Shown piece by piece: positions 4,579 through 29,785 of a stretch of DNA of 64,000 nt. This DNA is from Flavobacteriaceae bacterium (GTDB lineage: Bacteria > Bacteroidota > Bacteroidia > Flavobacteriales > Flavobacteriaceae), in the NCBI GenBank assembly GCA_947448525.1, contig CANFNV010000010.1, forward strand, positions 14,157 through 78,156. The letters run 5' to 3'. Below the pieces are notes generated by a model. That model was not told where the DNA came from and searched no databases. It saw only the letters and a program-made list of their open reading frames with translations. Position 1 is the stretch's first letter. Every line of letters starts with the position of its first letter. The position numbers and the translations under genes were made by a program.

Positions 4579-4727
4579 AATTTGGAAATGTGAAAATGAT
4601 ATAATTTGAAAATTACAATAAAAATGATTTTAAATAATTAAATTTGTAAAGTGCACATTTGAATTAAAATATGTTATCCCTATTCATTGTGCATTTTCAA
4701 ATTTCCAAATTCTTACATTTTCAAATT
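4579..4727. repeat. Inverted pair of degenerate 8-nt tandem-unit arms (AATTTGAA/TTCAAATT type)
   Basis: Left 4579-4614 AATTTGGAAATGTGAAAATGATATAATTTGAAAATT; right 4691-4727 GCATTTTCAAATTTCCAAATTCTTACATTTTCAAATT. Confidence 0.65.
4639..4646 (+). promoter_or_regulatory. Bacteroidota sigma-A -7 element for rarA
   Basis: TAAATTTG matches TAnnTTTG, 85 nt upstream of ATG 4731. Confidence 0.55.
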
Positions 4728-4730
4728 AAA

Positions 4731-6008
4731 ATGGAAGCACCTTTAGCCGAACGCATTCGTCCGCAAAAATTAGAAGATTACATCAGTCAGTTGCACTTGG
4801 TTGGTCCAAACGGCTCGTTGACACAACAAATTGCACGCGGCGTGATTCCTTCAATGATTTTTTGGGGCTCGCCAGGCACAGGAAAAACTACTTTGGCGCA
4901 AATTATTGCTAAACAAAGTCAGCGTCCGTTTTATGAATTGAGCGCCATAAATAGTGGTGTAAAAGACATTCGTGATGTGATTGAAAAAGCAAAACAAAGT
5001 GGCGGACTATTTACCGCAAAAAATCCAATCTTATTTATTGATGAGATTCATCGATTTAGTAAATCGCAACAAGATTCGCTTTTAGCAGCAGTCGAAAAAG
5101 GTTGGGTAACTCTGATTGGTGCAACCACAGAAAATCCAAGTTTTGAAGTAATTCCCGCGTTATTGTCACGTTGTCAGGTGTATGTTCTAAATCCGTTTTC
5201 AAAAGAAGATTTGTTAGCACTTTTAGAACGAGCCATGAAACAAGACGTTTCTATTTCATCCAAAAAAATCAAAATCAAAGAATCGGAAGCGTTGTTGCGA
5301 CTTTCAGGCGGGGATGGCAGAAAACTATTAAATATTTTTGAATTGGTTGTAAACGCAAGTCCTGAAGGTCAAATTACAATCACTAACAAAAAAGTTTTGG
5401 AATTAGTTCAACAAAACACAGTGCTTTATGATAAAACTGGAGAACAACATTATGATATTGTTTCGGCTTTTATCAAGTCCATTCGCGGAAGCGATCCCAA
5501 TGGGGCGGTTTATTGGTTGGCTCGAATGATTGAAGGTTGCGAAGATGTAAAATTTATTGCCAGAAGAATGTTGATTTTATCAAGTGAAGATATTGGGAAT
5601 GCCAATCCTACTGCATTTATTATGGCAAACAATACATTTCAAGCCGTTGCTACGATTGGTTATCCCGAAAGCAGAATTATCTTGAGTCAATGTGCTGTAT
5701 ATTTGGCAACTTCCCCAAAAAGTAACGCCAGTTATATGGCAATTAATGATGCCCAGGCGTTAGTAAAACAAACAGGAGATTTACCAATTCCAATTCATTT
5801 ACGAAATGCACCAACCAAATTAATGAAAGAATTGGGTTATGGCGATGAGTATCAATATTCCCATAATTATGCTAATAATTTTAGTGAGCAAGAATACCTG
5901 CCAGAAGCCATTAAAGAAACTAAATTTTATGAGCCTGGAAATAACTCCCGTGAAAATGGAACTCGTGAATTTTTAAAAAACCGTTGGAAGGATAAGTATG
6001 GGTATTAA
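4731..6008 (+). CDS. rarA: Replication-associated recombination protein A (MgsA/RarA AAA+ ATPase)
   Basis: Starts [11 protein letters not shown] (ATG 4731; the ORF-track extension from 4671 runs through the repeat arm); Walker [10 protein letters not shown], Walker [24 protein letters not shown]. Confidence 0.95.
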
Positions 6009-6722
6009 TTAGAATTGAACGTGCAACAATTCAGTGATTTTTTGATTATTCAGATAATATTCAAAAATCCATTTTTCATTGTCTTTAAAAAAAATTCCTG
6101 TATTTTCTTTTCTTTTTGCAATGTAAACGTCTTTTACAGAAGTGTATTTTATATTCATATAAACAACTTCTGGATTTGATGTAATCAAATCAAACCCTTC
6201 AATTGCTTTTTTTGGATACAAAATCATAGGCTTTCCCTCGTTGTGCTCTACTCCCTGAAAAGCTAATTCACCGACCGTTCCAATGCTTTTTTCAGAAGGC
6301 TGATACTTATGTGTTTTTAACATTCCAAAATTATCAAATGCCATTCGCAAGGCTTCATTATATGCCACTCTATATTCTTTTTCTCTACTAGTTCCTTCAT
6401 CCGATGTAGCGAGGATGTTGTTTTTGCAATCTTTAATAACTACTTTTAACTTGGTAGAAAACATAGTACTATTATTCAATACGTCTATAAAAATTTTATT
6501 ACAATTAATACTAGCAAAATCTGCTGAAAAAGTTTCATTGTCATAATAGCTTTCAAAACCATATTTCTGTAAATACATTTTAGTTATTAAATTCAAATTA
6601 TACTGATTCTCTTCTTTCAAAAAAGAGAATTTTGAAGGCATCAGAGCATATTTATACTCATTCACATTTTGTGCAAATACAACAGCAGAAAACAATAAAA
6701 ACAATACAATATATTTTTTCAT
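6009..6722 (-). CDS. Conserved secreted hypothetical protein
   Basis: Signal peptide MKKYIVLFLLFSAVVFAQ; start overlaps the yjjG-like stop (TAATG), so co-transcribed. Confidence 0.75.
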   Translation of the reverse strand: MKKYIVLFLLFSAVVFAQNVNEYKYALMPSKFSFLKEENQYNLNLITKMYLQKYGFESYYDNETFSADFASINCNKIFIDVLNNSTMFSTKLKVVIKDCKNNILATSDEGTSREKEYRVAYNEALRMAFDNFGMLKTHKYQPSEKSIGTVGELAFQGVEHNEGKPMILYPKKAIEGFDLITSNPEVVYMNIKYTSVKDVYIAKRKENTGIFFKDNEKWIFEYYLNNQKITELLHVQF

Positions 6723-7405
6723 TACAGATGTTTTTTTAATTCAATTAGGTGGTTTATTTGTTTGATATGACTCGGAATTTCTATATTTTTTTCATTAAAA
6801 TGTATTGCATCCATACCAAAATTTAATGCTCCATTTACATCGGCATCTATGCAATCGCCAATCATTATTGAGTTTGCTTTATCAACTTTTGCGATGGAAA
6901 GAGCATGTTCAAAAATCTTTGGATTTGGTTTTTTAACACCTGCCATTTCTGAATTGGTGACCGAAATAAAATAATCTATAATTCCAGAATTTATTAATTT
7001 CTTTTCTTGAACCTCGGCAAAACCGTTAGTGATAATGTGCAGTTTGTATTTGGCGCTAAGGTATTCTAAAACTTCAATTGTTCCGTCAAATAGACTATTA
7101 TTTTCGGGTAAAAAAGTAATATAGTCAATTGCCATTTGGTTTATTTCTTCGTCTAAAATATCATAATTTAGGGCATCAAACGAATTTTTCAATCTTTTAT
7201 ATCGCAATTCGTCATGTGAAATAGAATCGTTTTGATATAATTTCCAAAACGCTTGATTTATTGGAGCATATATGGAAATAAACTTTTTTGTCTCGATAGT
7301 TGGATGCTTTTCGCTAAATATCTTATCAAATGCCAACTCAGAATTTTTATCAAAATCCCAAAGAGTATGATCTAAGTCAAAAAAAACGTCAGTTATATGT
7401 TTCAT
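6722..7405 (-). CDS. YjjG-family HAD nucleotidase
   Basis: HAD motif I FFDLDHTLWDF, ITNGF, KKP, motif IV MIGDCIDADVNGA. Confidence 0.9.
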   Translation of the reverse strand: MKHITDVFFDLDHTLWDFDKNSELAFDKIFSEKHPTIETKKFISIYAPINQAFWKLYQNDSISHDELRYKRLKNSFDALNYDILDEEINQMAIDYITFLPENNSLFDGTIEVLEYLSAKYKLHIITNGFAEVQEKKLINSGIIDYFISVTNSEMAGVKKPNPKIFEHALSIAKVDKANSIMIGDCIDADVNGALNFGMDAIHFNEKNIEIPSHIKQINHLIELKKHL

Positions 7406-7407
7406 TT

Positions 7408-8091
7408 TTAAAAAATTCCTTCGTCATTAAAACTATAATATCCTGTTTCTGTTATTATAATATGATCTAGAACTATAATATCCAATTGTTGCCCTGCAAG
7501 CTTCAATTTTCTAGTTATTTCTTTATCGGGATCACTGGCTTGCAATTTTCCTGATGGATGATTGTGTGTCAAAATTAACGAAGTTGCATTATATTCCAAT
7601 GCGGTTTTAAAAATTATTCTAGTATCGACAATGGTTCCTGTTAACCCTCCTTTGGATAATTGTGCTTTATGTAGCACTTTGTTGGAATTATTAAGATACA
7701 AAACCCAAAATTCTTCGTGTGGAAGTTCTCCAATAATAGGCTGCATAATTTCAAAAACAGCTTTGCTAGATGTAATTTTGTTTAATATAATAGCATCTTC
7801 TGCCCTACGCCTTCTTCCTAATTCTAAAGCTGCCGCAATAGAAATAGCTTTGGCCTCTCCTATTCCTTTATACTCTGTAAGTTGTTGAATGGATAATTTT
7901 CCGAGTTGATTCAGATTATTATTGGCTGAAAATAATATCCTTTGGCAGAGTTGCACGGCACTTTCATTCCGTGAACCAGAACCAATAAGAATAGCAAGTA
8001 ATTCGGAATCAGATAAGGCAAATTTACCTTTTAAGAGAAATTTTTCTCGTGGGCGATCTTCTTCAGCCCATTGGTTGATTGGTGTGTACAT
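7408..8091 (-). CDS. radC: RadC family JAB-domain protein
   Basis: RPREK...ALSDSELLAILIGSG, KGIGEAKA, JAB motif HNHPSG...SDPD...DHII. ATG 8091 preferred over TTG 8118. Confidence 0.93.
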   Translation of the reverse strand: MYTPINQWAEEDRPREKFLLKGKFALSDSELLAILIGSGSRNESAVQLCQRILFSANNNLNQLGKLSIQQLTEYKGIGEAKAISIAAALELGRRRRAEDAIILNKITSSKAVFEIMQPIIGELPHEEFWVLYLNNSNKVLHKAQLSKGGLTGTIVDTRIIFKTALEYNATSLILTHNHPSGKLQASDPDKEITRKLKLAGQQLDIIVLDHIIITETGYYSFNDEGIF

Positions 8092-8275
8092 GATTATTTT
8101 GGCGTTTATAAAAAACAAAGAAACTTATTTTTTTAATATGTTCAAAATAAAATGATTGCTTTTTACTAAACAAAACCATTTATTGATCAGATTCCAAAGA
8201 ATGATAAGAATATGTAATAGTATTGTATGTTTAGTTAGTCCTTACGAAGGAATCTCTTATTTTATAATTGACAAA

Positions 8276-9631
8276 TTATCCAATTAATTGCTTCACCTCT
8301 TCAAAGTTCAATCCACCATAATTACCCGAACTCATTAAAAGCAATGCCGAATTATCAAAATTTTGACTGAACAGAAAGTTTTTAAATTCAGCTGGATTGG
8401 TATAAATGATTAAATCGTCTCTTTGGAATGATTCCGCAATTTGCTCATACGTTACTTCCTCCAATTGTTTAATTTTAACCGCATCGGGCGAATAAAAAAC
8501 CGCAGCAACATCAGCTGCGTCTAGTGCACCTTGATATTCTTTTAAAAATTCGGCATTCAAACTACTATAGGTATGCAATTCTAAACAAGCAATTAATTTT
8601 CTATCAGGATATTGATTTTTAACCGCTTTTGTAGTTGCAGAAACTTTGCTTGGTGAATGGGCAAAATCTTTGTAAGCTACTTTTCCTTTGCCTTCGGCAA
8701 TTTTTTCAAGACGTTTGCTTGCTCCTTTGAAACTCGCAATGGCTTCATAGAAGTCTGCTTCGTCAACACCCATATTTTGACAAATCCATTTGGCACCAGC
8801 TAGATTATTTAAATTATGCGCTCCAAAAACTTCAATTGGCATTGGGCCTTCGGGTGTATCTAACAAAGTAGTTCCTTCCTCAACTGTGTATGATGGGGTT
8901 GTATAAGGCATTTTTCTGATAGTATTTGTAGTTGATTCCGCTACTTTTTTAACGGTTTCGTCTTCTTCATTGTAAACTAAAATTCCGCCTTTAGTAATTT
9001 GATTTACAAAAATTTCAAATTGTTCCACATAATTCTCAAAGGTTGGAAATACATTAATATGGTCCCAAGCAATTCCAGAAATCAAAGCAATATTGGGTTG
9101 ATATAAATGAAATTTTGGACGTCTATCTATTGGGGAAGATAAATATTCATCGCCTTCTAGAACTATGAAATCATTTTCATGTGTAAGATGTACCATGGTG
9201 TCAAATCCTTCTAATTGAGCGCCAACCATATAATCTACTGCAATATTATGGTAATGCATCACATGTAAAATCATAGAAGTGATCGTTGTTTTTCCATGGG
9301 AACCACCAATTACTACTCGTGTTTTATTTTTGGATTGGTCGTATAAAAATTCGGGATACGAAAAGATTTTCAAACCCAATTCTTGTGCTTTCAACAATTC
9401 TAGATTATCTGCTTTAGCATGCATTCCTAGTATTATAGCTTCAATATTTTTAGTGATTTTTACTGGAAACCAACCCATTTCTATTGGCAGTAATCCTTTT
9501 TTTTCTAATCTCGATTTAGAGGGTTCGAAGATTGCATCATCACTCCCCGTTACTTGATATCCTTTGTTGTGTAATGCTAATGCTAAATTGTGCATTGCTG
9601 CTCCGCCAATGGCAATAAAGTGTATTCTCAT
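8276..9631 (-). CDS. Mur ligase, Mpl/MurC-like (peptidoglycan recycling ligase most likely)
   Basis: HFIAIGGAAMHNLA, GSD, P-loop GGSHGKTT, EGDEY, DFAHSP. Confidence 0.85.
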   Translation of the reverse strand: MRIHFIAIGGAAMHNLALALHNKGYQVTGSDDAIFEPSKSRLEKKGLLPIEMGWFPVKITKNIEAIILGMHAKADNLELLKAQELGLKIFSYPEFLYDQSKNKTRVVIGGSHGKTTITSMILHVMHYHNIAVDYMVGAQLEGFDTMVHLTHENDFIVLEGDEYLSSPIDRRPKFHLYQPNIALISGIAWDHINVFPTFENYVEQFEIFVNQITKGGILVYNEEDETVKKVAESTTNTIRKMPYTTPSYTVEEGTTLLDTPEGPMPIEVFGAHNLNNLAGAKWICQNMGVDEADFYEAIASFKGASKRLEKIAEGKGKVAYKDFAHSPSKVSATTKAVKNQYPDRKLIACLELHTYSSLNAEFLKEYQGALDAADVAAVFYSPDAVKIKQLEEVTYEQIAESFQRDDLIIYTNPAEFKNFLFSQNFDNSALLLMSSGNYGGLNFEEVKQLIG

Positions 9632-9633
9632 TT

Positions 9634-12770: not shown

Positions 12771-12787
12771 ATTAAATTTATTTTAAT

Positions 12788-13822: not shown

Positions 13823-13828
13823 TTTTTT

Positions 13829-13885
13829 AGGTCTTGGGTTTTTGGTTATAGGTCTTGGGGCTATAAAACCTTGGACTTTATCCCT
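13829..13885. repeat. Degenerate heptamer array with short inverted arm
   Basis: AGGTCTT GGGTTTT TGGTTAT AGGTCTT GGGGCTA, then TAAAACC TTGGACT TTATCCC. Confidence 0.55.
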
Positions 13886-14054
13886 AATTTTAGTTGTATA
13901 TTTTATTTAAAAGTATTCTGAAAATCTAAATACACAAGAGTATTTTCAAAAAAAAAGAGCCAATATCCTTGTTTTGAATCTAGCTCCTTTTGTGTATGCA
14001 AATATCTAAAAAAAAAATGAATGCTCGAAACTTTATATCATTCAATAAATTAGA

Positions 14055-14627: not shown

Positions 14628-14637
14628 TTGTATTTAT

Positions 14638-14743
14638 TTGATTTTTGATTTTTGATTTTTGATTTTTGATTCAACTTCTATAATGCTTCGCCAATTCGAG
14701 CAAAACTCTCGGGTCAAAAATCTCTAATCTTCAATCGTTAATT
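14638..14743. repeat. Heptamer inverted-arm element with REP-like core
   Basis: (TTGATTT)x4+TTGATTC 14638-14672; core GCTTCGCCAATTCGAGCAAAACTCTCGGGTC 14685-14715; AAAAATC TCTAATC TTCAATC GTTAATT 14716-14743. Confidence 0.8.
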
Positions 14744-14744
14744 A

Positions 14745-15951: not shown

Positions 15952-17106
15952 ATGAATTATTTTTCTTCCGATTTTAAACTGGGAATTCTCGGTGGCGGTC
16001 AATTAGGCAAAATGCTTTTGGCTGAAACTCGAAAATTTGACATTCAAACCTATGTTATCGACCCAAGCACAGCAGCACCAAGTCAATTTGGAGCTACTGA
16101 ATTTTTTATAGGTGATTTGATGGATTTTGATGCCATTTATGAATTCGGAAAAAAAGTGGATGTGCTTACTATCGAAATTGAAAATGTAAATTTAGATGCT
16201 TTAGATAAATTAGAGAAAGAGGGATTAGCTGTTTATCCCTCACCCAAAACCTTGCGTTTGATTCAAAATAAAGGTCGTCAAAAGGATTTTTATGTCGAGA
16301 ATGGCATTCCATCAGCACCACATCTTCGATTTACAGACCTAACAAAACTTAAATCAGCCGCCGCATCAGATAAAATTAAGATGCCCTTTGTATGGAAATG
16401 TGCTCAATTTGGTTACGATGGAAATGGTGTGAAAATAGTACGCACTGCATCCGATTTAAATAATTTACCCAATGTAGAATGCATTGCTGAAGAAATGGTG
16501 CCTTTTATAAATGAATTGGCGGTTATTGTAGCTCGTTCTGTATCTGGAGAAGTGAATACCTATCCTGTTGTTGAAATGGAATTCCATCCCGAAGCCAATC
16601 AAGTAGAGTATGTCATTTGTCCGGCACGAATAGATAATGAGATTGCCTCAAAAGCAACCAAAATTGCTTTAAAAGTTTCCGAAGCTTTTAATCATGTTGG
16701 ATTGTTAGCGGTAGAACTATTTCAAACTGAAAACGATGAAATTTTAGTCAACGAAGTAGCACCACGTCCTCATAATTCTGGGCATTATTCTATTGAAGCA
16801 AGTTATACATCGCAATTTGAAAATCATCTACGCGCCATATTAAACTTACCTCTAGGAAATACAGATAGTAAAGTTGCCGGAATTATGGTAAATTTGGTCG
16901 GTGAAGAAGGATTTTCAGGACCTGTGACCTATAAAAATATTGAAAAAATAATGGCCATTAACGGGGTAACTCCTCACATTTATGGCAAAAGAGAAACAAG
17001 ACCTTTCCGAAAAATGGGACATGTTACCATTGTAAATGAAGATATGGCAGAAGCAAGAAAAATTGCTGAAGAAGTGAAGAATACCCTCCGTGTAATTGCG
17101 GAGTAA
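15952..17106 (+). CDS. purK: N5-carboxyaminoimidazole ribonucleotide synthase
   Basis: LGILGGGQLGKML, TIEIENV, GYDGNG, NEVAPRPHNSGH, RKMGHVT. Confidence 0.96.
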   Translation: MNYFSSDFKLGILGGGQLGKMLLAETRKFDIQTYVIDPSTAAPSQFGATEFFIGDLMDFDAIYEFGKKVDVLTIEIENVNLDALDKLEKEGLAVYPSPKTLRLIQNKGRQKDFYVENGIPSAPHLRFTDLTKLKSAAASDKIKMPFVWKCAQFGYDGNGVKIVRTASDLNNLPNVECIAEEMVPFINELAVIVARSVSGEVNTYPVVEMEFHPEANQVEYVICPARIDNEIASKATKIALKVSEAFNHVGLLAVELFQTENDEILVNEVAPRPHNSGHYSIEASYTSQFENHLRAILNLPLGNTDSKVAGIMVNLVGEEGFSGPVTYKNIEKIMAINGVTPHIYGKRETRPFRKMGHVTIVNEDMAEARKIAEEVKNTLRVIAE

Positions 17107-17138
17107 TTATTAATTATCAATTGTTAATTATCAATTAA
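17104..17138. repeat. Five-unit heptamer array filling the purK-purE spacer
   Basis: TAATTAT TAATTAT CAATTGT TAATTAT CAATTAA, beginning with the purK stop codon. Confidence 0.75.
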
Positions 17139-17139: not shown

Positions 17140-17622
17140 ATGAAAGTAGCCATAATAATGGGAAGCATATCCGATATGCCCGTGATGCAAGAAGCCATCG
17201 AAATCTTAAAAGGATTTGACATCGAAACCGAAGTAGACATCGTTTCGGCGCATAGAACACCTGAAAAATTATTTGATTTTAGTAAAAATGCACATAGTCG
17301 TGGCATTTCTGTGATTATTGCTGGTGCAGGAGGTGCGGCTCATTTACCAGGAATGGTAGCTTCAATGTCGCCACTTCCCGTGATTGGAGTTCCGATAAAA
17401 TCTAGTAATTCTATTGATGGATGGGATTCAGTTTTGTCTATTTTGCAAATGCCAGGTGGCGTGCCTGTAGCAACCGTTGCGCTAAACGGAGCAAAAAATG
17501 CCGGGATTCTAGCTGCACAAATCATTGGAAGTTCTGATAAATGTGTTTTAGACAAAATCATTTTCTATAAAGAAAGTTTGAAAGAAGCTGTGAATAAAGC
17601 CGCATCTGAATTGAAAAAATAA
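17140..17622 (+). CDS. purE: N5-CAIR mutase
   Basis: IMGSISD, SAHRTP, AGAGGAAHLPGM, SILQMPGGVPVATV. Confidence 0.97.
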   Translation: MKVAIIMGSISDMPVMQEAIEILKGFDIETEVDIVSAHRTPEKLFDFSKNAHSRGISVIIAGAGGAAHLPGMVASMSPLPVIGVPIKSSNSIDGWDSVLSILQMPGGVPVATVALNGAKNAGILAAQIIGSSDKCVLDKIIFYKESLKEAVNKAASELKK

Positions 17623-17629
17623 ATAATTG

Positions 17630-17709
17630 CATAGAGAACCACAGAGATTTGTACAGAGAAATTATTTTTCTTGAAAGTCTCTGTGAAACTCTGTGAAACT
17701 CTGTGAAAC
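17630..17709. repeat. Decamer inverted-arm element (CACAGAG / CTCTGTG)
   Basis: Left CATAGAGAAC CACAGAGATT TG TACAGAGAAA; right (CTCTGTGAAA)x3 perfect at 17679-17708. Confidence 0.8.
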
Positions 17710-17715
17710 AAAAAA

Positions 17716-19740
17716 ATGAAAATACTTACTTCAACATTCAATACCAAATACAACACAGCTCCTTTTTCGCAAATAAAGCTTGAAGAGTACAAACCTGCTT
17801 TTATAGAAAACATCGCTACTGCAAAAGCCGAAATTGACGCCATAATTAACAATCCTGAAGCTCCAACATTTGAAAACACAATTGTAGCTTTAGATTTTTC
17901 GGGGGAACAATTGGATCGGTTATCTTCTATTTTCTTTAATTTGAATTCAGCTGAAACATGTGATGAAATGCAAAAAATTGCACAAGAAGTTTCTCCAATA
18001 TTAACCGAATTTAGTAACGATATTGCTTTAAATGAAGATTTGTTCAAACGAGTAAAAGCTGTTTATGATCAAAAAGATTCTTTAACTTTAACTACAGAAC
18101 AAGCTACTTTACTAGACAAAAAATTCAAAGGTTTTTCAAGAAATGGAGCTTTGCTTAATGAAGAAGACAAATTAAAATTACGTGAAATTGATACGGAATT
18201 AGCCAAACTAAAATTAACGTATGGCGAAAATGTTTTGGCAGAAACCAATAACTATCACTTGCATATTACCAACGAAGCCGATTTGAAAGGATTGCCGGAT
18301 GACGCAAAAGAAATGGCATTCAGTTTGGCAAAATCTAAAAACCTTGAAGGGTGGGTTTTTACTTTAGATTTTCCAAGTTATTTGCCCTTTGTGACGTATG
18401 TTGACAATCGTGAATTGCGAAAAGAAATGACCATTGCGGCCGGAAAAAAAGCGTTTCAAAATAATGAATTTGACAATAAAGAAAATGTAAAAAGAATTGT
18501 AGAATTACGCCATAAACGAGCAATTTTGTTAGGTTATCAATCGCATTCTCACTTTGTTTTAGAAGAACGCATGGCACAAAATCCAGAAAAAGTGCAATCG
18601 TTTTTGAATGATTTATTAGCCAAAGCAAAACCAGCAGCCGAACGCGAATTTATTCAATTAACCGCTTTCGCAAAAGATCTCGACGGAATTGACCAGATAG
18701 AAAAATGGGATGGTTCTTATTATTCAGAAAAATTGAAACAAAAGTTATTCTGTTTGGATGATGAATTATTAAAGCCCTATTTTCAATTAGAAAAGGTTTT
18801 AAATGGAGCGTTTACCATTGCCGAAAAGTTATTTGGAATTACCTTTAAAGAAGTTTTTGATATCGATAAATACCAGGAGGAAGTTCAAACATTTGAAGTG
18901 TTAGATGAAACAAATAATTTTGTTGCCGTGTTCTACTCCGATTTTTTCCCAAGAAAAGGAAAACGTAATGGAGCTTGGATGACATCATATAAATCGCAAG
19001 CTTTGAAAAATGGAATCAATGACCGACCGCACGTTTCTATCGTATGTAATTTCACGCCTCCTACAGAAACCAAACCATCACTCCTAACTTTCAACGAAGT
19101 TACTACTTTATTTCACGAATTTGGTCACGCTTTACATGGAATGTTAGCCAATACAACCTATCCAAGTTTGTCTGGGACTTCGGTATATTGGGATTTTGTA
19201 GAATTGCCAAGTCAAGTGATGGAAAATTGGTGTTATGAGCCCGAAGCATTGGCATTGTTTGCAAAACATTATGAAACTGGTGAAATTATTCCGCAAGAAT
19301 ATGTAGAAAAAATTAAAGAAAGTGCGAGTTTTTTAGAAGGAATGGCAACTTTACGTCAATTGAGCTTTGGTATTTTAGACATGACCTATCACGGAAAATC
19401 ACAAACAATTAAAGACGTAAAAATATTTGAAAAACAAGCAATGGAAGGCACTAGCTTATATCCAGACGTTGCAGAAAATTGTATGAGTACCTCTTTTTCA
19501 CACATATTTCAAGGAGGCTATTCTTCTGGATATTACAGTTACAAATGGGCTGAAGTTTTAGATGCTGATGCATTCGCCTATTTCCAAGAAAAAGGAATTT
19601 TCAATAAAGAAGTAGCCTCTAAATTCAAAGAAAATGTATTATCTAAAGGTGGTACCGAATTGCCGATGGAATTGTATAAAAAATTTAGAGGTCATGAACC
19701 AAATGCCCATGCATTGTTGAAGAGAGCAGGATTGGTCTAG
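17716..19740 (+). CDS. dcp: M3 family metallopeptidase (peptidyl-dipeptidase Dcp-like)
   Basis: GKRNGAWM, HEXXH in FHEFGHALH, DFVELPSQ, YYSYKWAEVLDADAF. Confidence 0.9.
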   Translation: MKILTSTFNTKYNTAPFSQIKLEEYKPAFIENIATAKAEIDAIINNPEAPTFENTIVALDFSGEQLDRLSSIFFNLNSAETCDEMQKIAQEVSPILTEFSNDIALNEDLFKRVKAVYDQKDSLTLTTEQATLLDKKFKGFSRNGALLNEEDKLKLREIDTELAKLKLTYGENVLAETNNYHLHITNEADLKGLPDDAKEMAFSLAKSKNLEGWVFTLDFPSYLPFVTYVDNRELRKEMTIAAGKKAFQNNEFDNKENVKRIVELRHKRAILLGYQSHSHFVLEERMAQNPEKVQSFLNDLLAKAKPAAEREFIQLTAFAKDLDGIDQIEKWDGSYYSEKLKQKLFCLDDELLKPYFQLEKVLNGAFTIAEKLFGITFKEVFDIDKYQEEVQTFEVLDETNNFVAVFYSDFFPRKGKRNGAWMTSYKSQALKNGINDRPHVSIVCNFTPPTETKPSLLTFNEVTTLFHEFGHALHGMLANTTYPSLSGTSVYWDFVELPSQVMENWCYEPEALALFAKHYETGEIIPQEYVEKIKESASFLEGMATLRQLSFGILDMTYHGKSQTIKDVKIFEKQAMEGTSLYPDVAENCMSTSFSHIFQGGYSSGYYSYKWAEVLDADAFAYFQEKGIFNKEVASKFKENVLSKGGTELPMELYKKFRGHEPNAHALLKRAGLV

Positions 19741-20756: not shown

Positions 20757-23600
20757 ATGAAAACAGACGCTTTTGCATTACGCCACATAGGTCCAAATGA
20801 AAATGACCTAAAATATATGTTGAAAACTATTGATGTTGAGTCGATAGATCAATTGATTTCTGAAACAATTCCTAGTGACATTCGTCTGAAATCTAATTTG
20901 AATTTGGAACCTGCAATGACCGAATACGAATTTGCAAATCATATTAAAAAACTTGGTGATAAAAATAAGATGTTCAAATCTTATATCGGACTAGGTTACA
21001 ATCAAGCCATAATTCCAGCAGTTATTCAAAGAAATGTCTTTGAAAATCCGGGTTGGTATACCGCTTACACCCCATATCAAGCTGAAATAGCTCAAGGCCG
21101 TTTAGAAGCAATTTTGAATTTTCAAACCATGGTTATTGAATTAACGGGGATGGAAATTGCAAACGCATCACTACTAGATGAAGGAACTGCCGCCGCAGAA
21201 GCAATGGCATTACTTTTTGATGTTCGTTCAAGAGACCAAAAGAAAAATAACGTTACTAAATTCTTCGTTTCTGAAGAAATTTTACCGCAAACATTATCGG
21301 TTTTACAAACACGCTCTACTCCAATTGGTGTGGAATTAGTAATTGGAAACCACGAAGAATTTGATTTTTCTGACGATTTTTATGGCGCTATTCTTCAATA
21401 TCCTGGTAAATTCGGTCAAATACACGATTATGCAGGTTTTATTGCTAAGGCTAAAACAAAAGAAATTAAAGTAGCCGTTGCAGCAGATATTTTAAGTTTG
21501 ATTAAACTGACGTCTCCAGGAGAGATGGGTGCCGATGTAGTTTTAGGAACAACGCAACGTTTTGGGATACCGTTAGGATATGGTGGCCCTCACGCAGCTT
21601 ATTTTGCTACAAAATCCGAATACAAGCGTTCGATGCCAGGAAGAATTATTGGAGTTACTGTTGATACCGACGGTAATCGAGCACTTCGTATGGCGCTACA
21701 AACTCGTGAACAACACATTAAACGGGACAAAGCCACCTCGAATATTTGTACGGCACAAGTTTTGTTGTCTGTTATGGCCGGAATGTATGCTGTATTTCAC
21801 GGTCCTAAAGGTTTAGAATATATTTCCAATAAAGTGCACAATTCAGCAGCAACATTAGCAAACGAATTGGAAAAATTAGGGTTATACCAAACTAATACCG
21901 TTTTTTTTGATACAATTGTTATCAAAACGGATGCTAAAAAAGTTAAAGAAATTGCCGAACAAAACGAAGTAAATTTTCTTTATATTGATGAAAAAACCGT
22001 TTCAATTTCAATGAATGAAACTACAAGTATTGCCGACTTGAATAATATTGTTGCGATTTTTGCTGAAGCAACAGGTAAAGAATCTTCAACTATTTCTGAA
22101 TTGCAAAACGGAAATCAAATTCCTCCAAATTTAGAAAGAACCTCAACATTTTTACAACATGATGTTTTTAATAAATACCATTCAGAAACGGCGCTGATGC
22201 GTTATATCAAGATGCTAGAGCGTAAAGATTTGGCATTGAACCACTCCATGATTTCACTGGGTTCTTGCACAATGAAACTGAATGCTGCTTCTGAAATGCT
22301 GCCGCTTAGTATGGCACAATGGAATAATATTCATCCTTTTGCCCCACTAGATCAAGCGCAAGGTTATCAGGAAATGCTCTCAAAATTAGAGCAGCAATTG
22401 AATGTAGTTACCGGTTTTGCAGGAACAACTTTACAACCCAATTCAGGTGCGCAAGGTGAATATGCCGGTTTAATGGTTATTCGGGCATATCATCAATCTC
22501 GGGGCGATTATCATAGAAATATTGCATTAATTCCATCTTCAGCACATGGAACAAATCCTGCTTCGGCAGCGATGGCTGGAATGCAGGTTGTTGTTACTAA
22601 AACATTAGAAAACGGAAATATTGACGTTGAAGATTTACGAGAAAAAGCTATTCTTCACAAAGACAATCTTTCGTGTTTGATGGTAACTTATCCTTCTACA
22701 CATGGAGTATTTGAAAGTGCCATTAAAGAAATTACGGAACTTATTCACGATAATGGTGGTCAAGTTTATATGGATGGTGCAAATATGAATGCTCAAGTTG
22801 GATTAACAAATCCAGCAACAATTGGTGCAGATGTTTGTCACTTAAATTTACACAAAACATTTGCAATTCCACATGGAGGGGGTGGTCCGGGAGTTGGTCC
22901 AATTTGTGTAGCCCCACAATTAGTTCCTTTTTTACCAACAAATCCAATAATTCCTACCGGTGGTTCAACTGCTATTACAGCTATTTCTGCTGCACCTTGG
23001 GGATCGGCTTTAGTATGCTTAATTTCTTATGGATATATTTGTATGCTGGGCGCTGAAGGTTTAAAAAAATCTACAGAATATGCCATTTTGAATGCCAATT
23101 ATATTAAAGAAAAATTAAAGGGTCATTACGACACCTTGTATTCAGGTGAAATGGGTCGTGCTGCTCACGAAATGATATTGGAATGCCGTCCCTTTAAAGA
23201 AAAAGGGATTGAAGTTACAGACATTGCAAAACGATTGATGGACTATGGATTTCATGCACCGACAGTATCATTTCCGGTAGCAGGAACTTTAATGATTGAA
23301 CCAACAGAAAGTGAAAATTTAGAAGAATTAGATCGTTTTTGTGACGCTATGATTTCTATAAGAAAAGAAATTGAATCAGCAACTGCAGATAACTCCAATA
23401 ATGTTTTAAAAAATGCACCTCACACTTTAATGATGGTTACATCAGATGATTGGAATTATCCTTATACACGCGCACAAGCTGCTTTTCCGTTGAATTATGT
23501 TGCAGAAAATAAATTTTGGCCCACCGTTCGTCGTGCTGATGAAGCGTATGGTGATAGAAATTTAGTGTGTAGTTGTGCACCAATTGAGGCTTATATGTAA
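20757..23600 (+). CDS. gcvP: Glycine dehydrogenase (glycine cleavage P protein)
   Basis: FALRHIGP, YTPYQAEIAQGRLE, KATSNICTAQ, LGSCTMKLN, PLP-Lys motif HLNLHKTF, GDRNLVCSC. Confidence 0.98.
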   Translation: MKTDAFALRHIGPNENDLKYMLKTIDVESIDQLISETIPSDIRLKSNLNLEPAMTEYEFANHIKKLGDKNKMFKSYIGLGYNQAIIPAVIQRNVFENPGWYTAYTPYQAEIAQGRLEAILNFQTMVIELTGMEIANASLLDEGTAAAEAMALLFDVRSRDQKKNNVTKFFVSEEILPQTLSVLQTRSTPIGVELVIGNHEEFDFSDDFYGAILQYPGKFGQIHDYAGFIAKAKTKEIKVAVAADILSLIKLTSPGEMGADVVLGTTQRFGIPLGYGGPHAAYFATKSEYKRSMPGRIIGVTVDTDGNRALRMALQTREQHIKRDKATSNICTAQVLLSVMAGMYAVFHGPKGLEYISNKVHNSAATLANELEKLGLYQTNTVFFDTIVIKTDAKKVKEIAEQNEVNFLYIDEKTVSISMNETTSIADLNNIVAIFAEATGKESSTISELQNGNQIPPNLERTSTFLQHDVFNKYHSETALMRYIKMLERKDLALNHSMISLGSCTMKLNAASEMLPLSMAQWNNIHPFAPLDQAQGYQEMLSKLEQQLNVVTGFAGTTLQPNSGAQGEYAGLMVIRAYHQSRGDYHRNIALIPSSAHGTNPASAAMAGMQVVVTKTLENGNIDVEDLREKAILHKDNLSCLMVTYPSTHGVFESAIKEITELIHDNGGQVYMDGANMNAQVGLTNPATIGADVCHLNLHKTFAIPHGGGGPGVGPICVAPQLVPFLPTNPIIPTGGSTAITAISAAPWGSALVCLISYGYICMLGAEGLKKSTEYAILNANYIKEKLKGHYDTLYSGEMGRAAHEMILECRPFKEKGIEVTDIAKRLMDYGFHAPTVSFPVAGTLMIEPTESENLEELDRFCDAMISIRKEIESATADNSNNVLKNAPHTLMMVTSDDWNYPYTRAQAAFPLNYVAENKFWPTVRRADEAYGDRNLVCSCAPIEAYM

Positions 23601-23603
23601 TTT

Positions 23604-23684
23604 AGTCATAAAGACAACAAAGTCGAATGTCTAAAGTCCTAAAAATACTTTGGCATTCGACTTTTGACTTTAAGACATTGTGAC
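23604..23684. repeat. Heptamer inverted-arm hairpin (AAAGTC / GACTTT type)
   Basis: Left ...AAAGTC GAATGTC TAAAGTC; right GGCATTC GACTTTT GACTTTA A GACATTG; the arms are near reverse complements. Confidence 0.8.
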
Positions 23685-23692
23685 CAAAAAAA

Positions 23693-24070: not shown

Positions 24071-24201
24071 ATTTAAATTTTTAATAATATTATAACCAAA
24101 TATTGATGATTTCATAATTATATGAGGGCGTATGAATTTTATAATGTAATTTAATTAATTATCATTAATTTTACATTGAATTTCTTTGATTAATTAATAG
24201 A

Positions 24202-25260: not shown

Positions 25261-25320
25261 AATTTGGAAGTTGAAAAAAAAGTAAATTAATTAAATTAAC
25301 TGAAGGAAAGCCCAAATTCA

Positions 25321-25842
25321 ATGTACGAAAAAACATTTCCAAATAAACGATTCAAACATACTTTAGCATTTTTGAAAAAAAATGTGTCCACTGCAGAAAC
25401 CATTTTTGATTTAGGTGTGCCAAATCCATTTTCCAAAATAATGGAAGAAAATGGGTATACTGTTAAAAACACAAAAGGTGAAGATTTAGATAATAACCAA
25501 ACTGTATTACAAAATGAATCCTATACTGTATTCACTGCATTTGAAATTTTTGAACATTTGCTGAATCCTTACACAATATTACAAAACGTGAATTGTGATA
25601 AATTATTAATTTCAATACCGTTGCGATTATGGTTTTCTCCTGCTTATAAAAGTAAAACTGACATGTGGGACAGACATTACCATGAGTTTGAAGATTGGCA
25701 ATTGGATTGGCTACTAGAAAAAACTGGATGGAAAATTATTGCCAGAGAAAAGTTTACACATCCCGTTAAAAAAATTGGATTTAGACCATTATTACGATAC
25801 TTCACCCCAAGGTATTATATTGTTTATGCGGAAAAAGCATAA
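25321..25842 (+). CDS. SAM-dependent methyltransferase-like protein
   Basis: IFDLGVPNP motif I variant, AFEIFEHLLNP. Confidence 0.65.
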   Translation: MYEKTFPNKRFKHTLAFLKKNVSTAETIFDLGVPNPFSKIMEENGYTVKNTKGEDLDNNQTVLQNESYTVFTAFEIFEHLLNPYTILQNVNCDKLLISIPLRLWFSPAYKSKTDMWDRHYHEFEDWQLDWLLEKTGWKIIAREKFTHPVKKIGFRPLLRYFTPRYYIVYAEKA

Positions 25843-25884
25843 GTAAACACTAATTATTTCTATAAAAAAAGTAATAGAAACTTA

Positions 25885-26601
25885 TTATGATTCATCCATA
25901 GTATGATAAACGTTCATCACGTCATCATCCTCTTCAATTTTTTCAATCAATTTTTCTACATCTGCTATTTCAGCTTCAGTTAACTTTTTGGTTACTTGTG
26001 GAATTCTTTCGAAACCAGAAGATAGAATTTCAATACCTCTATTCTCAAGTTCTTTTTGAATGGCACCAAAACTCTCAAATGGTGCATAAATTAAAATTTC
26101 GTCTTCATCATCTGCAAAAATTTCTTCTGCACCAAAATCGATGAATTCCAATTCCATTTCTTCAATATCTACATTATTGTTTGGAATGCGAAAATTACAG
26201 GTATGATCGAACATAAATTCAACTGAACCTTGAGTTCCCATTGTGCCATTGCATTTATTGAAATAACTTCTAATGTTGGCTACAGTTCTGTTATTATTAT
26301 CGGTTGCTGTTTCAATAAGAAGTGCAATTCCATGAGGTGCATACCCTTCAAAAAGTTGCTCTTTATAGTTGGCAGTATCTTTATCCGTTGCTTTTTTAAT
26401 AGCTCGTTCTACGTTTTCTTTTGGCATGTTAGCCGCCTTCGCATTTTGAATCACGGCACGCAAACGCGAATTTGCCTCTGGATTTGGACCCCCTTCTTTT
26501 ACAGCCATTACAATGTCTTTTCCAATGCGAGTAAACGCTTTAGCCATTGCCGACCAACGTTTCATTTTTCTACCTTTTCTAAATTCGAACGCTCTTCCCA
26601 T
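25885..26601 (-). CDS. YebC/PmpR (TACO1) family protein
   Basis: KRWSAMAKAFTRI, NSRLR, NMPKENVERAI, EGYAPHG, TDNNNRT, EEDDDVMNVYH. Confidence 0.94.
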   Translation of the reverse strand: MGRAFEFRKGRKMKRWSAMAKAFTRIGKDIVMAVKEGGPNPEANSRLRAVIQNAKAANMPKENVERAIKKATDKDTANYKEQLFEGYAPHGIALLIETATDNNNRTVANIRSYFNKCNGTMGTQGSVEFMFDHTCNFRIPNNNVDIEEMELEFIDFGAEEIFADDEDEILIYAPFESFGAIQKELENRGIEILSSGFERIPQVTKKLTEAEIADVEKLIEKIEEDDDVMNVYHTMDES

Positions 26602-26638
26602 TTCTAAGAATATATTTTAGTTTAATTTAAATCGATTG

Positions 26639-26667
26639 CAAAAGTACTTCTTTCAATAAAATATCAA
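26639..26667 (-). promoter_or_regulatory. -7/-33 promoter for the yebC-like gene
   Basis: Minus strand TACTTTTG (26646-26639) with TTG at 26667-26665, 18-nt spacer. Confidence 0.6.
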
Positions 26668-26674
26668 AAGAAAC

Positions 26675-27760
26675 TTATTCTTTTTTATAAAATGGCATTT
26701 TTACCACTTTAGCAGCAATCTTTTTATCTCTAATTAAAATAAAGATTTCAGAATCAGCTGCTGTAAAATCTGTTTTAACATAACCCATTCCAATGGCTTT
26801 TCCTAAACTTGGTGCTTGTGTTCCTGAGGTTACAATTCCAATATTAGTTCCATTGGCATCAACAATTTCATAATCGTGTCTTGGAATTCCTCTGTCAATT
26901 AATTCAAAACCAATTAATTTTCTTGAAACTCCAGCTTCTTTTTGTGCTTTTAAGTTAGCTGAATTAGTGAATTCTTTGGTGAATTTCGTAATCCAACCCA
27001 AGCCAGCTTCAATTGGAGAAGTGGTATCATTAATATCATTTCCATACAAGCAGAATCCCATTTCTAATCGCAACGTATCTCGAGCCGCTAATCCGACTGG
27101 CTTAATTCCGAAAGTTTTTCCAGCTTCAAAAACAGCGTTCCAAATAGATTCAACTTCAGAATTTTTACAATAGATTTCAAATCCACCAGAACCAGTATAT
27201 CCAGTAGCAGAAATAACTACATTTTCAATTCCGGCAAAATCAGCTACTTCAAAATGATAATATTTTATTGATGCTAAATCTATTGATGTCAATGACTGCA
27301 TTGCTTCAACCGCTTTAGGCCCTTGAATAGCTAGCAAAGAATAATCTTCCGACACGTTTTTCATTTCGGCACCAAAATCATTATGTGACGAAATCCAATC
27401 CCAATCTTTATCTATATTTGAGGCATTCACAACCAATAAATAGTGTTCTTCATTTAATTTATAAACAATCAAATCATCTACAATTCCGCCCTCATTATTA
27501 GGCAAACAAGAATATTGAGCTTTACCAATTTCGAGAGTTGCAGCATCATTAGAAGTTACTTTTTGGATTAAAGCTAATGCATTTACACCCGAAATTAAAA
27601 ATTCTCCCATGTGTGAAACATCAAAAACACCTACTGCATTTCTTACGGTTTCGTGTTCTGCATTTACACCTTCATAAGAAACAGGCATATTAAAACCTGC
27701 AAACGGTACCATTTTTGCTCCTAAACTTTCGTGAACGTGCGTTAAAGCTGTATTTTTCAT
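26675..27760 (-). CDS. gcvT: Aminomethyltransferase (glycine cleavage T protein)
   Basis: [45 protein letters not shown]. Confidence 0.97.
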
Positions 27761-27930
27761 TAGTATTTTATTTGTTTAGGGTGCTAAATTAGTGTTTTTT
27801 AAAGAATTTTTGCCACTAATCATTTTGATTTTTATGTGTTTAAGAAAGAATAGTTTTATTCAACTTTTACTACTTAAAAAACGAGTAATTTTATGGTCGA
27901 TAACAAACCTTATTACGATTCCTGTTCAAA

Positions 27931-28764
27931 ATGATTAAAGTTTCCAAAGAATTTATTCTCAACCTCTATAAACCAATTGTTAGTAGCACTCACAAAGGAT
28001 TGCAAGGTCATGCCTTATTGATTGGTGGTAGTTATGGTAAAATGGGATCGGTATGTTTGTCTAGCAAAGCCGCTTTAAAATCGGGTTGTGGATTAGTAAC
28101 TTCGTTTGTTCCAAAATGTGGCTACGCCATAGTGCAAATTTGCATCCCAGAGATAATGGTTTTGACAGATGATAACGAAGTTATTATTTCCAAAATAAAA
28201 TTTAACTTTAAACCCAATGCTGTTTGTATAGGAATTGGAATGGGTCAGGATAGTCAAACTAAAAGGACTTTTTATGATTTTATTCTTCAAAACAAATACC
28301 CTTTAATAATTGATACTGATGGTTTGAATATTTTGTCAGAGAATAAAGATTGGTTATCACTTTTACCAAATAAAACCATATTAACGCCTCATAAAAAAGA
28401 ATTGGAACGATTAATTGGAATTTGGAAACTAGAGGAAGAAAAGCTGGAAAAAGTAATTCAATTATCTTTAAAATACAATTTAGTTGTTGTTATCAAACGG
28501 GCTCCAACAGTTTTAGTTTATGGAAATAAAATTTATCAAAATACCACGGGAAATCAAGCTCTGGCAACCGCAGGTAGTGGTGATGTGCTTTCGGGAATTA
28601 TCACAAGTTTCGTTGCACAAGGTTATGATACAGTTGATGCGGCTCTTTTAGGTGTTTATCTTCATGGATTAACTGCAGATTTAGGTATCATAGAAACGGG
28701 TTATCAGGCGTTTATTGCGAGTGATATTATTAACTATTTAGGAAATGCTTTTCTAAGTATTTAA
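27931..28764 (+). CDS. nnrD: ADP-dependent NAD(P)H-hydrate dehydratase (stand-alone NnrD domain)
   Basis: [46 protein letters not shown]. Confidence 0.9.
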
Positions 28765-28888
28765 AATTATGATTTATAGTATTTCGATTTTTTTACTTTC
28801 ATAAAAAAAATAAAAACTTTAATATTAAAAGAACTTCTTAAACGAAATACTTATTTCTTTTTATAATTTTGCTGTTATAAATAAACAT

Positions 28889-29737
28889 ATGAATTATTAC
28901 ATAGTTATACCTTCACACAACGAAGAAGCATTCATTTCATTAACATTACAATCTATTGTTTTGCAAACTATTTTACCTAAAAAAGTTGTTGTAGTGAATG
29001 ATAATTCAACCGATAAGACGGCTGATGTTGTTATGGAATTTTGCAATCTATATTCCTGGATAACATTAGTAAACAAAACTTCTGACGCTATTCATTTGCC
29101 AGGGAGTAAAGTAATTCAAGCGTTTCAAAAAGGATTAGAAACTTTGGATGATCATTATGATTTTATTGTAAAAGCAGATGCCGATTTGATTTTTCCGCCA
29201 AATTATTTTGAAACTATTATCAAACATTTTCAAAATGATTTAACAGTTGGAATGGTTGGAGGATTTGCTTACATAGAAAAAAATGGTGAATTTATATTAG
29301 AAAACTTAACCGATAAAGATCATATTAGAGGTGCTTTTAAATCATATAGAAAAGAAACATTTAAACAAATTGGTGGATTAAAACCTGCAATGGGTTGGGA
29401 TACGGTTGATGAACTATTATGTAAATTCTATAATTGGAATGTAGTTACTGATGCCACTTTAAAAGTAAAACATTTAAAACCAACTGGCGCGAATTATAAT
29501 AATACAGCGCGTTTCAAACAAGGAGAAGCTTTTTATACATTGGGTTACGGATTTTTAATTACTGCTATTGCTTCTGCAAAATTAGCTTTGATGAAGAAAA
29601 AACCTTTTCTTTTTATTGATTATATAAGAGGATTTTGCAAAGCCAAACTTGAAAAAAAACCACTTTTGGTTTCTCCAGAACAAGCTAAATTCATTCGTAA
29701 CTACCGACTTCAGAAGATGAAAGAAAAATTGTTTTAA
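28889..29737 (+). CDS. Glycosyltransferase family 2
   Basis: IPSHNEE, VNDNSTD, DxD in KADAD, GWDTVDE. Confidence 0.9.
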   Translation: MNYYIVIPSHNEEAFISLTLQSIVLQTILPKKVVVVNDNSTDKTADVVMEFCNLYSWITLVNKTSDAIHLPGSKVIQAFQKGLETLDDHYDFIVKADADLIFPPNYFETIIKHFQNDLTVGMVGGFAYIEKNGEFILENLTDKDHIRGAFKSYRKETFKQIGGLKPAMGWDTVDELLCKFYNWNVVTDATLKVKHLKPTGANYNNTARFKQGEAFYTLGYGFLITAIASAKLALMKKKPFLFIDYIRGFCKAKLEKKPLLVSPEQAKFIRNYRLQKMKEKLF

Positions 29738-29750
29738 GTTAAAATCTTTC

Positions 29751-29785
29751 AACTCATAACTCATAACTCATAACTTCTCACTATT
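29751..29785. repeat. Heptamer array, single arm
   Basis: (AACTCAT)x3 + AACTTCT + CACTATT. Confidence 0.75.

Follow-up and report, generated by a model that had tools for sequence, protein, structure and literature searches.

The sequence described here (hereafter the window) is a stretch of 64,000 nucleotides (nt) from a Flavobacteriaceae bacterium (GenBank assembly GCA_947448525.1, contig CANFNV010000010.1), which corresponds to C10:14157-78156 of a genome of 2.15 Mb and 32.5% G+C that is 90% complete in 33 contigs and was assigned to Flavobacterium by comparison of flanking genes. Coordinates preceded by C1, C3, C10 and so on refer to contigs of this same genome (G000), those without a prefix refer to the window, and L-numbers denote loci taken from relatives. 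A sequence-only reading had noted tandem units of 7, 8 or 10 nt in seven intergenic spacers, at 4579, 13829, 14638, 17104, 17630, 23604 and 29751, and had described the units of five of them as two arms in inverted orientation. All seven spacers do carry short-unit repeats, although the one at 4579 is weak and the one at 13830 degenerate, and two inverted arms are present only at 14638, 17630 and 23604, not at 4579, 13829, 17104 or 29751. In our judgement these arrays are probably the arms of polar, hairpin-forming ("foldback") one-gene cassettes, some of them preserved as complete pairs and some as solitary remnants.

Folding of the window spacers as RNA in the sense orientation, scored against shuffles, separated the two-armed sites (17620-17715, z = -7.0; 23598-23692, z = -5.8; 14628-14744, z = -2.9) from 4579 (z = +0.5), 13829 (-1.6), 17104 (-0.5) and 29751 (-0.3), where the fold was not significant. 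At none of the window sites do the arms enclose an open reading frame (ORF). The genes on either side are co-directional in six of the seven spacers and divergent at 4579. Tandem units of 5-11 nt, the hallmark of long simple-sequence repeats, exceed chance, and three of the window arrays are perfect.

The element at 17630-17709 (+ strand) is a gene-less hairpin of the CACAGAG type between purE (stop codon 17620-17622) and dcp (ATG at 17716). It is composed of a left arm (17630-17659; CATAGAG, CACAGAG and TACAGAGA), a loop (17660-17676) and a right arm (17677-17709) of three CTCTGTGAAA units, of which 17679-17709 was recorded by Tandem Repeats Finder (TRF) as a perfect array of 3.1 copies with 100% identity; the predicted fold has -28.9 kcal/mol. 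In unit, spacing and polarity its arms equal those of this genome's own GxxExxY gene (C1:193899-194270), an exact match to the earlier suggestion that CACAGAG/CTCTGTG arms go with genes of this kind, and the exact unit pair CTCTGTGNNNCTCTGTG was found in only 3 of 199 fetched loci, all of them GxxExxY cassettes. Judged by its letters, the element appears to belong to the arm family found around this GxxExxY gene, as a copy without the gene. A homologous gene-less hairpin follows purE in four more distant species (L020, L021, L022 and L029), while closer relatives have hairpins of the TTAAG or CAGT type there instead.

The spacer between hpt and adk is filled by a gene-less two-armed element on the - strand (14628-14744), the arms of which pair in the predicted fold. 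Read in the sense orientation it has a left arm of GATTGAA, GATTAGA and GATTTTT (14714-14736), a core of 42 nt and a right arm of five AATCAAA units (14637-14671; a perfect TTTGATT x5 on the + strand) that ends 10 nt ahead of the adk start. The G-rich arm comes first and the C-rich arm second, as in four-helix-bundle cassettes. The same spacer is only 21-42 nt long and armless in L003, L004, L006, L012, L013, L025 and L030; in L005, L009 and L014 it contains two-armed hairpins built of other units. The third two-armed element (23605-23676, + strand) is a gene-less hairpin 3' of gcvP (stop codon 23598-23600) with AAAGTC-type and GACTTT-type arms, a fold of -27.4 kcal/mol and a spacer inverted repeat of z = 6.3 (C10:37757-37848); it is followed by an A-run and has no U-tract. 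A search for remnants of cargo in the window loops gave one weak match elsewhere for the 14638 core (E = 0.05) and none for the 17630 loop.

Polarity at 17630 and 14638 is that of the cassettes described below. The two solo arrays, at 29751 and 13829, are rich in C and are found on the side of the start codon. The first of these (29751-29775, + strand) is a solitary, perfect and C-rich array of 3.6 AACTCAT units, 14 nt past the upstream stop codon and 31 nt ahead of the next start codon. AACTCAT is also the arm unit beside the four-helix-bundle gene at C1:324898-325257 and recurs at C1:6819; by its sequence the array is probably a solo right arm. The second (13830-13879, - strand) is a degenerate direct repeat (GGTCTTGGG twice, then CCTTGGAC) that abuts the obg start and is C-rich on the sense strand; no second copy was found elsewhere in the genome, and it is possibly a decayed right arm. 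The only strong hairpin in its spacer is the ordinary intrinsic terminator of adk (13937-13985, - strand), with the stem AAAAGGAGCUAGA...UUGGCUCUUUU followed by a U-run.

Two sites do not fit the design and probably stand outside the class. At 17104-17137 (+ strand) an AT-only array of TAATTAT and AATTATCAATTGTT (2.4 copies, 81-89% matched) fills the 33-nt spacer between purK and purE, and its membership is uncertain; in most Flavobacterium species this spacer holds two-armed hairpins of 7-8-nt units of other sequences. In nine species (L001, L004, L007, L008, L013, L019, L020, L027 and L029) it holds a small membrane-protein ORF as well; these ORFs, of 69-104 aa, are of two unrelated kinds and are flanked by sets of CAGT/GAAAC-type arms, and that of L007 lies between perfect GC-rich inverted repeats (AGCCCCCTAACCCC...). 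At 4579-4614 the promoter spacer between divergent genes contains a weak repeat resembling AATTTGAA, which reached only 67% matches and the minimal TRF score of 30, and the inverted partner claimed for it, TTCAAATT, is absent from the sequence, so this site is probably not a member. The window as a whole is read as containing three gene-less hairpins and, probably, two solo arms of the cassette class.

Arrays and cargo genes across the genome

The sequence-only reading had put forward that such arms often flank solo genes for four-helix-bundle (PF05635/TIGR02436) or GxxExxY (PF13366/TIGR04256) proteins, and this expectation was borne out. The genome has eight hits to PF05635, representing four intact genes and two decayed copies of two hits each (in NCBIfam TIGR02436, four helix bundle protein), and two hits to PF13366 (in NCBIfam TIGR04256, GxxExxY), and all ten are flanked by arms of tandem units. 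In the GxxExxY cassette (C1:193812-194754) three CACAGAGGTT units stand on one side of the gene and CTCTGTG arrays on the other. The four-helix-bundle gene at C1:324898-325257 has GTTGTGG/GTTTTGA units on one side and AACTCA[AT]/AACCCAC units on the other, the cargo gene at C4:128197-128550 has TTAGAC/GTCTAA units around it, and that at C19:18734-19186 has GTTTAG/CTAAAC hairpins on both sides.

When all 1,809 genes of the genome were scored blindly for inverted similarity between their 5' and 3' flanks, cargo genes took ranks 1, 2, 3 and 5, with scores of 39-45 (all genes: median 19, 99th percentile 30). The sample was extended to 83 loci from other genomes, most of which are arm-flanked in the same manner: median scores were 42 for 27 GxxExxY loci and 35.5 for 28 four-helix-bundle loci of other Flavobacterium (control median 20, 95th percentile 27), and 28 loci of other Bacteroidota families, spanning 32-62% G+C, showed the same design with a median of 32. 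Arrays also lie within 600 nt of a cargo gene in excess of expectation (6 of 104 vs 0.6). Both families are common: of the genomes searched, PF13366 is present in 50 of 61 from Flavobacterium, at 0-9 copies per genome, and PF05635 in all 41 from Flavobacterium and in 87 of 121 from Bacteroidota. The cargo gene is co-oriented with both neighbours in 52 of 55 cases, and one lies between groES and groEL. The GxxExxY motif was found in 26 of 27 proteins, as was a D...ExK motif; the closest solved structure to PF05635 is 2GSC (E = 2.7e-22), and the PDB holds no relative of GxxExxY detectable by sequence. The class of cassettes is real and widespread and, as far as found, has not been described in print.

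Two features of the cassettes may be recorded here. A tandem of four ~150-nt units at C1:194270-194776 (L086:1860-2370) joins the last GxxExxY codons, the CTCTGTG right arm and about 20 first codons of the downstream signal-peptide gene, and the arms are multiplied at this site in the relatives L090 and L094 too. A motif near TATACGCCAAAAT occurs 20-40 nt upstream of the cargo ATG in L084, L087, L100, L114 and L150, which include both cargo types; the leader of this genome's GxxExxY gene is without it.

The arrays themselves are far more frequent than chance would allow. Exact arrays of at least three copies number 24 at 7 nt and 9 at 8 nt, compared with 4 at 6 nt and 1 at 9 nt; heptamer arrays in spacers number 12, compared with 0.03 expected per simulated genome under an order-3 Markov model; and mismatch-tolerant counting by TRF gave approximately 75 heptamer, 31 octamer and 15 decamer arrays. 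The purE regions of other Flavobacterium species show the excess at 7 and 8 nt as well, those of other genera less strongly. The description of the units as unrelated in sequence was overstated: they are diverse (at least 40 types), yet families recur, such as AAAAGTTT at seven loci, AATTATG at five, AACTTCC and AAAAGTC at four each and AACTCAT at three. Units of the CRCRRAK type, i.e., C[AG]C[AG][AG]A[GT], were found at 29 loci, with 52 phased pairs vs 2-8 in a shuffled null; 27 of these loci are intergenic and only two carry the GxxExxY gene. An inverted copy of the unit was found within 60 nt of 14 arrays genome-wide, against 4.4 +/- 2.0 in a permutation null, from which it follows that two-armed forms are real but a minority; clean examples are C7:74751-74827 and C11:29393-29465. 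The longest array of the genome (C3:149120-149404) consists of 29 copies of ATTTTCT[AC] directly after 5.4 copies of AAAGTCG, in a spacer of 547 nt which also holds a CGCAAAT/ATTTGCG hairpin. Arrays of TAACTGA are present at C1:114132-114175 (6.3 copies) and C5:123594-123620 (3.9 copies), one of them ending 7 nt before a start codon.

Arrays are densest between co-directional genes, their density reaching 0.49 per kb in one co-directional class of spacer and 0.65 in the other, as compared with 0.28 in divergent and 0.17 in convergent spacers. Of 44 arrays in co-directional spacers, 19 end within 15 nt of the downstream start and 15 abut the upstream stop codon. No bias in strand composition or in position was apparent across whole spacers until the arrays were split by half-spacer. 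The gene-less arrays of the genome, those near cargo being excluded, then showed a mean G-C skew of +0.16 in upstream half-spacers and -0.39 in downstream ones (p = 0.02 in a one-sided Mann-Whitney test). Read on the sense strand, the cassettes have the same polarity, with a G-rich left and a C-rich right arm in 21 of 22 of those with a four-helix-bundle gene (p = 1e-5) and in 18 of 24 of those with GxxExxY; and at all eight two-armed gene-less CRCRRAK loci the CRCRRAK arm is on the left and its complement on the right.

Arm type tracks the lineage of the cargo. Four-helix-bundle genes have arms with periods of 7, 8 or 14 nt, their units being of 7-8 nt, whereas GxxExxY genes have arms of 9-10 nt which share the CRCRRAK core and often terminate in TTAACC[GA]CAA...TTG[CT]GGTTAA. 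Across different sites arm similarity correlated with cargo identity (Spearman 0.44, reached in 0 of 500 permutations, and 0.21, reached in 1 of 500), values that may be inflated by unrecognised pairs from the same site. At one shared site both arms have changed together, being CTAAG//CTTAG in L111, L112, L117 and L118 and CAAAGG//CCTTTG in L122 and L124.

Orthologous sites and decay of the cassettes

The idea that gene-less arms are empty or internally deleted copies of cassettes was addressed by locating the sites of other species' cassettes in this genome, and at one of them the decay is visible directly. The orthologue of C17:20339-20427 was compared over 30 species, of which nine are occupied, one is internally deleted, eight are gene-less with homologous arms (this genome being one of the eight) and one retains a footprint, TTTAACC..GGTAAAA; a further four carry arms of another type, six an Ssn-like GIY-YIG gene accompanied by a hairpin of its own and one (L167) other sequence. 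Successive stages can be recognised. The occupied locus L159 has a 14-nt deletion in its cargo gene. L154, compared with its sister L157, has lost the interior of the cassette while the left arm, leader, first codons, stop region with the 3' end and a shortened right arm remain, with short direct repeats or arm units at both junctions of the deletion. In a tree of the flanking protein well-supported sisters are in different states (L154/L157, L153/L156 and L161/L163). Whole units also differ between close relatives, as with the two 8-mers that distinguish L001 from L008, and together with the unit-mediated deletions this shows slippage and recombination among units.

At other sites of foreign cassettes this genome has a gene-less hairpin with the arm type of the occupied relative (C3:131560-131644), a gene-less hairpin with units unlike those of the relatives' cassette (C15:21799-21850) and a decayed four-helix-bundle gene (C5:34780-35150). 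Three further sites, groES-groEL, C15:31023-31026 and C5:106359-106423, are clean and armless here, which indicates that arms and gene arrive together at these sites. Of the mobile single-gene cassette system with a mechanism yet to be described that the sequence-only reading had proposed, the cassette association and the decay therefore stand, and the cassettes may be mobile, while occupancy is inherited mostly vertically.

Further small solo genes that resemble nucleases appear to lie between inverted repeats of their own in the same kinds of spacer, their families being named from the sequence. Ssn-like GIY-YIG genes with GATGCTGAAACGAGTTCAGCATC hairpins were read in L142, L145-L147, L149 and L163, upstream of the orthologue of C17:19575; and in the purE-dcp spacer of L033 and L006 a putative GIY-YIG gene is enclosed by GGTCGAGCGCAGTCGAGACC repeats and a DUF559-like gene by TTGTCCCCTTGAGGGGAC repeats.

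The window spacers were compared with one 20-kb purE region from each of 80 related genomes, which covers 13829, 14638, 17104, 17630 and 23604 where synteny holds, the spacers at 4579 and 29751 lying outside it; the closest relatives have PurE proteins 89-96% identical and none is of the same species. No four-helix-bundle or GxxExxY gene was found anywhere in these regions, so that the suggestion that the orthologous window spacers would include cargo-bearing cassettes found no support in the five spacers covered. Small ORFs of the purK-purE and purE-dcp spacers were considered as cargo and rejected, since by their sequences they seem unrelated to it: they were read as membrane peptides, a toxin-antitoxin-like pair, a 222-aa reverse-strand protein and a DUF559-like ORF. 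Given that no ORF separates the window arms and no cargo is present in these regions of the relatives, the window elements are filed as gene-less derivatives and not as full members, and their descent from cassettes is deduced from arm type and polarity only.

Proposed mechanism and competing explanations

In its full form a cassette has one small gene between two arms, each of them a tandem array of short units and the inverted copy of the other. It fills a co-directional spacer in sense orientation almost completely, between the stop codon of the gene before it and the start codon of the gene after it. It is inherited mostly vertically, with occasional gain at new sites, and decays in place by frameshift, then by internal deletion between repeated units to a gene-less hairpin, and finally to a solo array or footprint. 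Transcription would read through the cassette from the upstream gene, and the arms would pair into a long stem to be cut by RNase III as in the intervening sequences (IVS) of 23S rRNA, which would make insertion within a transcription unit harmless and release the cargo mRNA. The sense orientation in co-directional pairs, the lack of terminators of their own and the precedent of the S23p IVS (PMC4990558) together suggest such read-through followed by processing. Folded as RNA, the whole cassette C1:193800-194330 has an arm-arm stem of approximately 30 bp around the ORF in both the minimum free energy and the centroid structure (z = -4.5), and a gene for RNase III (rnc) is present in the genome. 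The number of units may shift by replication slippage while the arms stay complementary, and the cargo protein may recognise its own units, by analogy with Ssn and its NTS repeats or RAYT and REP sequences; since Ssn nucleases cut single-stranded DNA beside the repeats on either side of their genes (PMC11893778), it is a reasonable idea that the cargo protein recognises its arms.

The nearest relative in print is the ORF-bearing IVS of 23S rRNA in Coxiella burnetii and Leptospira, the ORF of which belongs to the same family (S23p = PF05635) and which is cut by RNase III (PMC4990558). Like the cassettes, it is part of a host transcript and has terminal inverted repeats pairing into a stem that surrounds a PF05635 ORF, this ORF decays where it stands, and there are ORF-less forms; such a stem around a PF05635 ORF is found in this genome's cassettes outside the window, the window copies having the stem only. 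The cassettes differ in that they lie between protein-coding genes and not in rRNA helices 25/45, have arms that are tandem arrays of 7-10-nt units and a second, unrelated cargo, the GxxExxY nuclease, and would be cleaved by RNase III only by extension from the IVS. Ssn nucleases cut single-stranded DNA next to hairpin repeats (NTS/SRM) that frame their own genes (PMC11893778). The likeness is that of a small nuclease gene framed by hairpin repeats which also occur gene-less elsewhere (two GxxExxY vs 27 CRCRRAK loci), and in six Flavobacterium species Ssn-like GIY-YIG genes with flanking hairpins of their own share the C17 spacer. The cargo here is TIGR02436 or TIGR04256, a non-enzymatic four-helix bundle or a PD-(D/E)xK protein, and not a GIY-YIG nuclease (cd10448) with a cognate repeat, GIY-YIG genes having been seen in relatives only; moreover the repeats are tandem arrays in two inverted arms, in tens of copies and not hundreds, and their recognition by the cargo would be by analogy.

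Heptanucleotide repeats known as STRR were reportedly described in cyanobacteria by Mazel in 1990. Arrays of TAACTGA and other heptamers are present upstream of start codons in a few Bacteroidetes (PMC4679880), TAACTGA being a unit described in Beggiatoaceae and Cyanobacteria. These long simple-sequence repeats share with ours the tandem units of 7 nt in two to six or more copies and the intergenic position, often just upstream of start codons; the published accounts treat them as direct repeats to which neither an inverted partner nor a gene belongs, whereas the arrays described here include the arms of cassettes and have a fixed polarity. REP/REPIN-RAYT systems likewise have intergenic palindromes that outnumber an associated small gene flanked by them, and differ from the cassettes, which have no Y1 transposase, comprise many low-copy families and have internally repetitive arms. 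Eukaryotic foldback (FB) transposons have long inverted arms of short tandem repeats in variable number, with or without a coding centre. The analogy with these is architectural only, FB elements being eukaryotic, transposase-dependent and of one sequence family. Full-text literature searches found no description of the cassette design; the system can thus be called undescribed as far as its design is concerned, while IVS (PMC4990558), Ssn (PMC11893778) and heptamer arrays (PMC4679880) are all in print.

If this scheme is correct, two very large families of unknown function (TIGR02436 and TIGR04256) and the decades-old puzzle of 7-nt repeats may form one system, the 23S rRNA IVS would be a special case of a general cassette that is harmless within transcription units, and intergenic "junk" of Bacteroidota could be better annotated. 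The model predicts that each protein binds its own arm units, that RNase III cleaves the arms and that cargo is lost by unit-mediated deletion; by analogy with Ssn the cassettes might also provide new sequence- or structure-specific nucleic-acid tools. A bolder proposal, which we put forward as speculation with little expectation that it will hold in full, is that the four-helix-bundle and GxxExxY proteins are sequence-specific readers of their own phased arms (with periods of 7-8 and 9-10 nt), that the cassettes are autonomous selfish elements colonising operon spacers and rRNA helices, and that gene-less arms make up most of the heptanucleotide excess of Bacteroidota and, by extension, the cyanobacterial STRR and the TAACTGA arrays of Beggiatoaceae.

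Several observations weigh against the interpretation of the arrays as cassette arms. Approximately 98 of the 104 arrays are far from any cargo gene, and the unit types outnumber the roughly eight cargo genes severalfold; the relatives have no cargo in the purE region; covariation in the 17630 hairpin is weak, with two compensatory pairs and a positive covariation term in an alignment of little sequence variation; and the direction of change is demonstrated for loss of cargo only and not for insertion into pre-existing hairpins. In addition, heptamers are the commonest class of long simple-sequence repeat in many prokaryotes, an excess which Mrazek (2007), as related in PMC4679880, put down to polymerase slippage. 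The window arrays could accordingly be ordinary repeats, generated by a slippage bias towards 7-8-nt units in AT-rich spacers and unconnected with cassettes, a reading which we consider unlikely. It accommodates the many unit types, the single arms of most arrays, their distance from cargo genes and the whole-unit differences between close relatives (L001/L008). Slippage alone leaves unexplained the excess of inverted partners, a constant polarity relative to transcription, the dependence of the period on the cargo, a CRCRRAK core conserved over species and sites, and the scarcity of arrays in convergent and divergent spacers. Alternatively the hairpins may be primary and serve the host as intercistronic RNA elements that process, stabilise or insulate transcripts, the small genes being later tenants of their loops. 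Gene-less CRCRRAK loci far outnumber gene-bearing ones (27 vs 2), the purE-dcp hairpin is kept in five species without cargo, hairpins lie in co-directional spacers near start codons and the cargo is always in the loop, as this would have it; yet arm type follows cargo lineage across different sites, the clean orthologous sites (groES-groEL, C15:31023 and C5:106359) speak for joint arrival, deletion intermediates trace the route from cassette to hairpin, and many close relatives lack hairpins in the same spacers, which tells against an essential role for the host. We hold this second alternative to be rather doubtful.

Binding of a translational regulator (S1, a cold-shock protein or a CsrA-like protein) to arrays upstream of start codons, comparable to the TAACTGA arrays of Beggiatoaceae, would suit the 19 of 44 arrays that end shortly before a start and the TAACTGA arrays at C1:114132 and C5:123594 (cf. 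PMC4679880). It seems highly improbable, as 15 of the 44 lie against the stop codon upstream, the idea does not account for inverted partners or cargo genes, and the diversity of units is too great for a single binding protein. The hairpins are intergenic and downstream of genes, as are REP/REPIN-like palindromes spread by a RAYT (Y1 transposase) and intrinsic terminators, and we give almost no credence to either. No Y1_Tnp gene (PF01797) was found in the 90% complete genome, no single family is of high copy number (the largest unit family has seven loci), and all three window hairpins are followed by A-runs and not U-tracts and have AT-rich arms of 25-35 nt. The canonical terminators of this genome are built otherwise: 127 of 1,022 spacers have a significant inverted repeat (9 in the null), mostly of the form A-run, stem and T-run, and only 11 of the 127 overlap a tandem array, canonical terminators being concentrated in convergent spacers (52 of 151). 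That the arrays are arms of foldback cassettes and their remnants is thus the explanation that we prefer.

Some narrower ideas were discarded. Derivation of units such as TAACTTTG from TAnnTTTG, the -7 promoter box of Bacteroidetes, fits few arrays and explains neither inverted arms nor polarity; piled-up target-site duplications from repeated insertion and excision would give direct flanks, where inverted ones are observed; and the notion that units which are not a multiple of three place a stop codon in each reading frame does not hold for AATCAAA and some other units. Rfam gave no match to a known RNA family, nor any rRNA match in window positions 1-32000. One heptamer array of the window, AGGTTGT x4.4 at 52180-52210 (C10:66336-66366), is situated inside a long ORF, 330 nt from its start.

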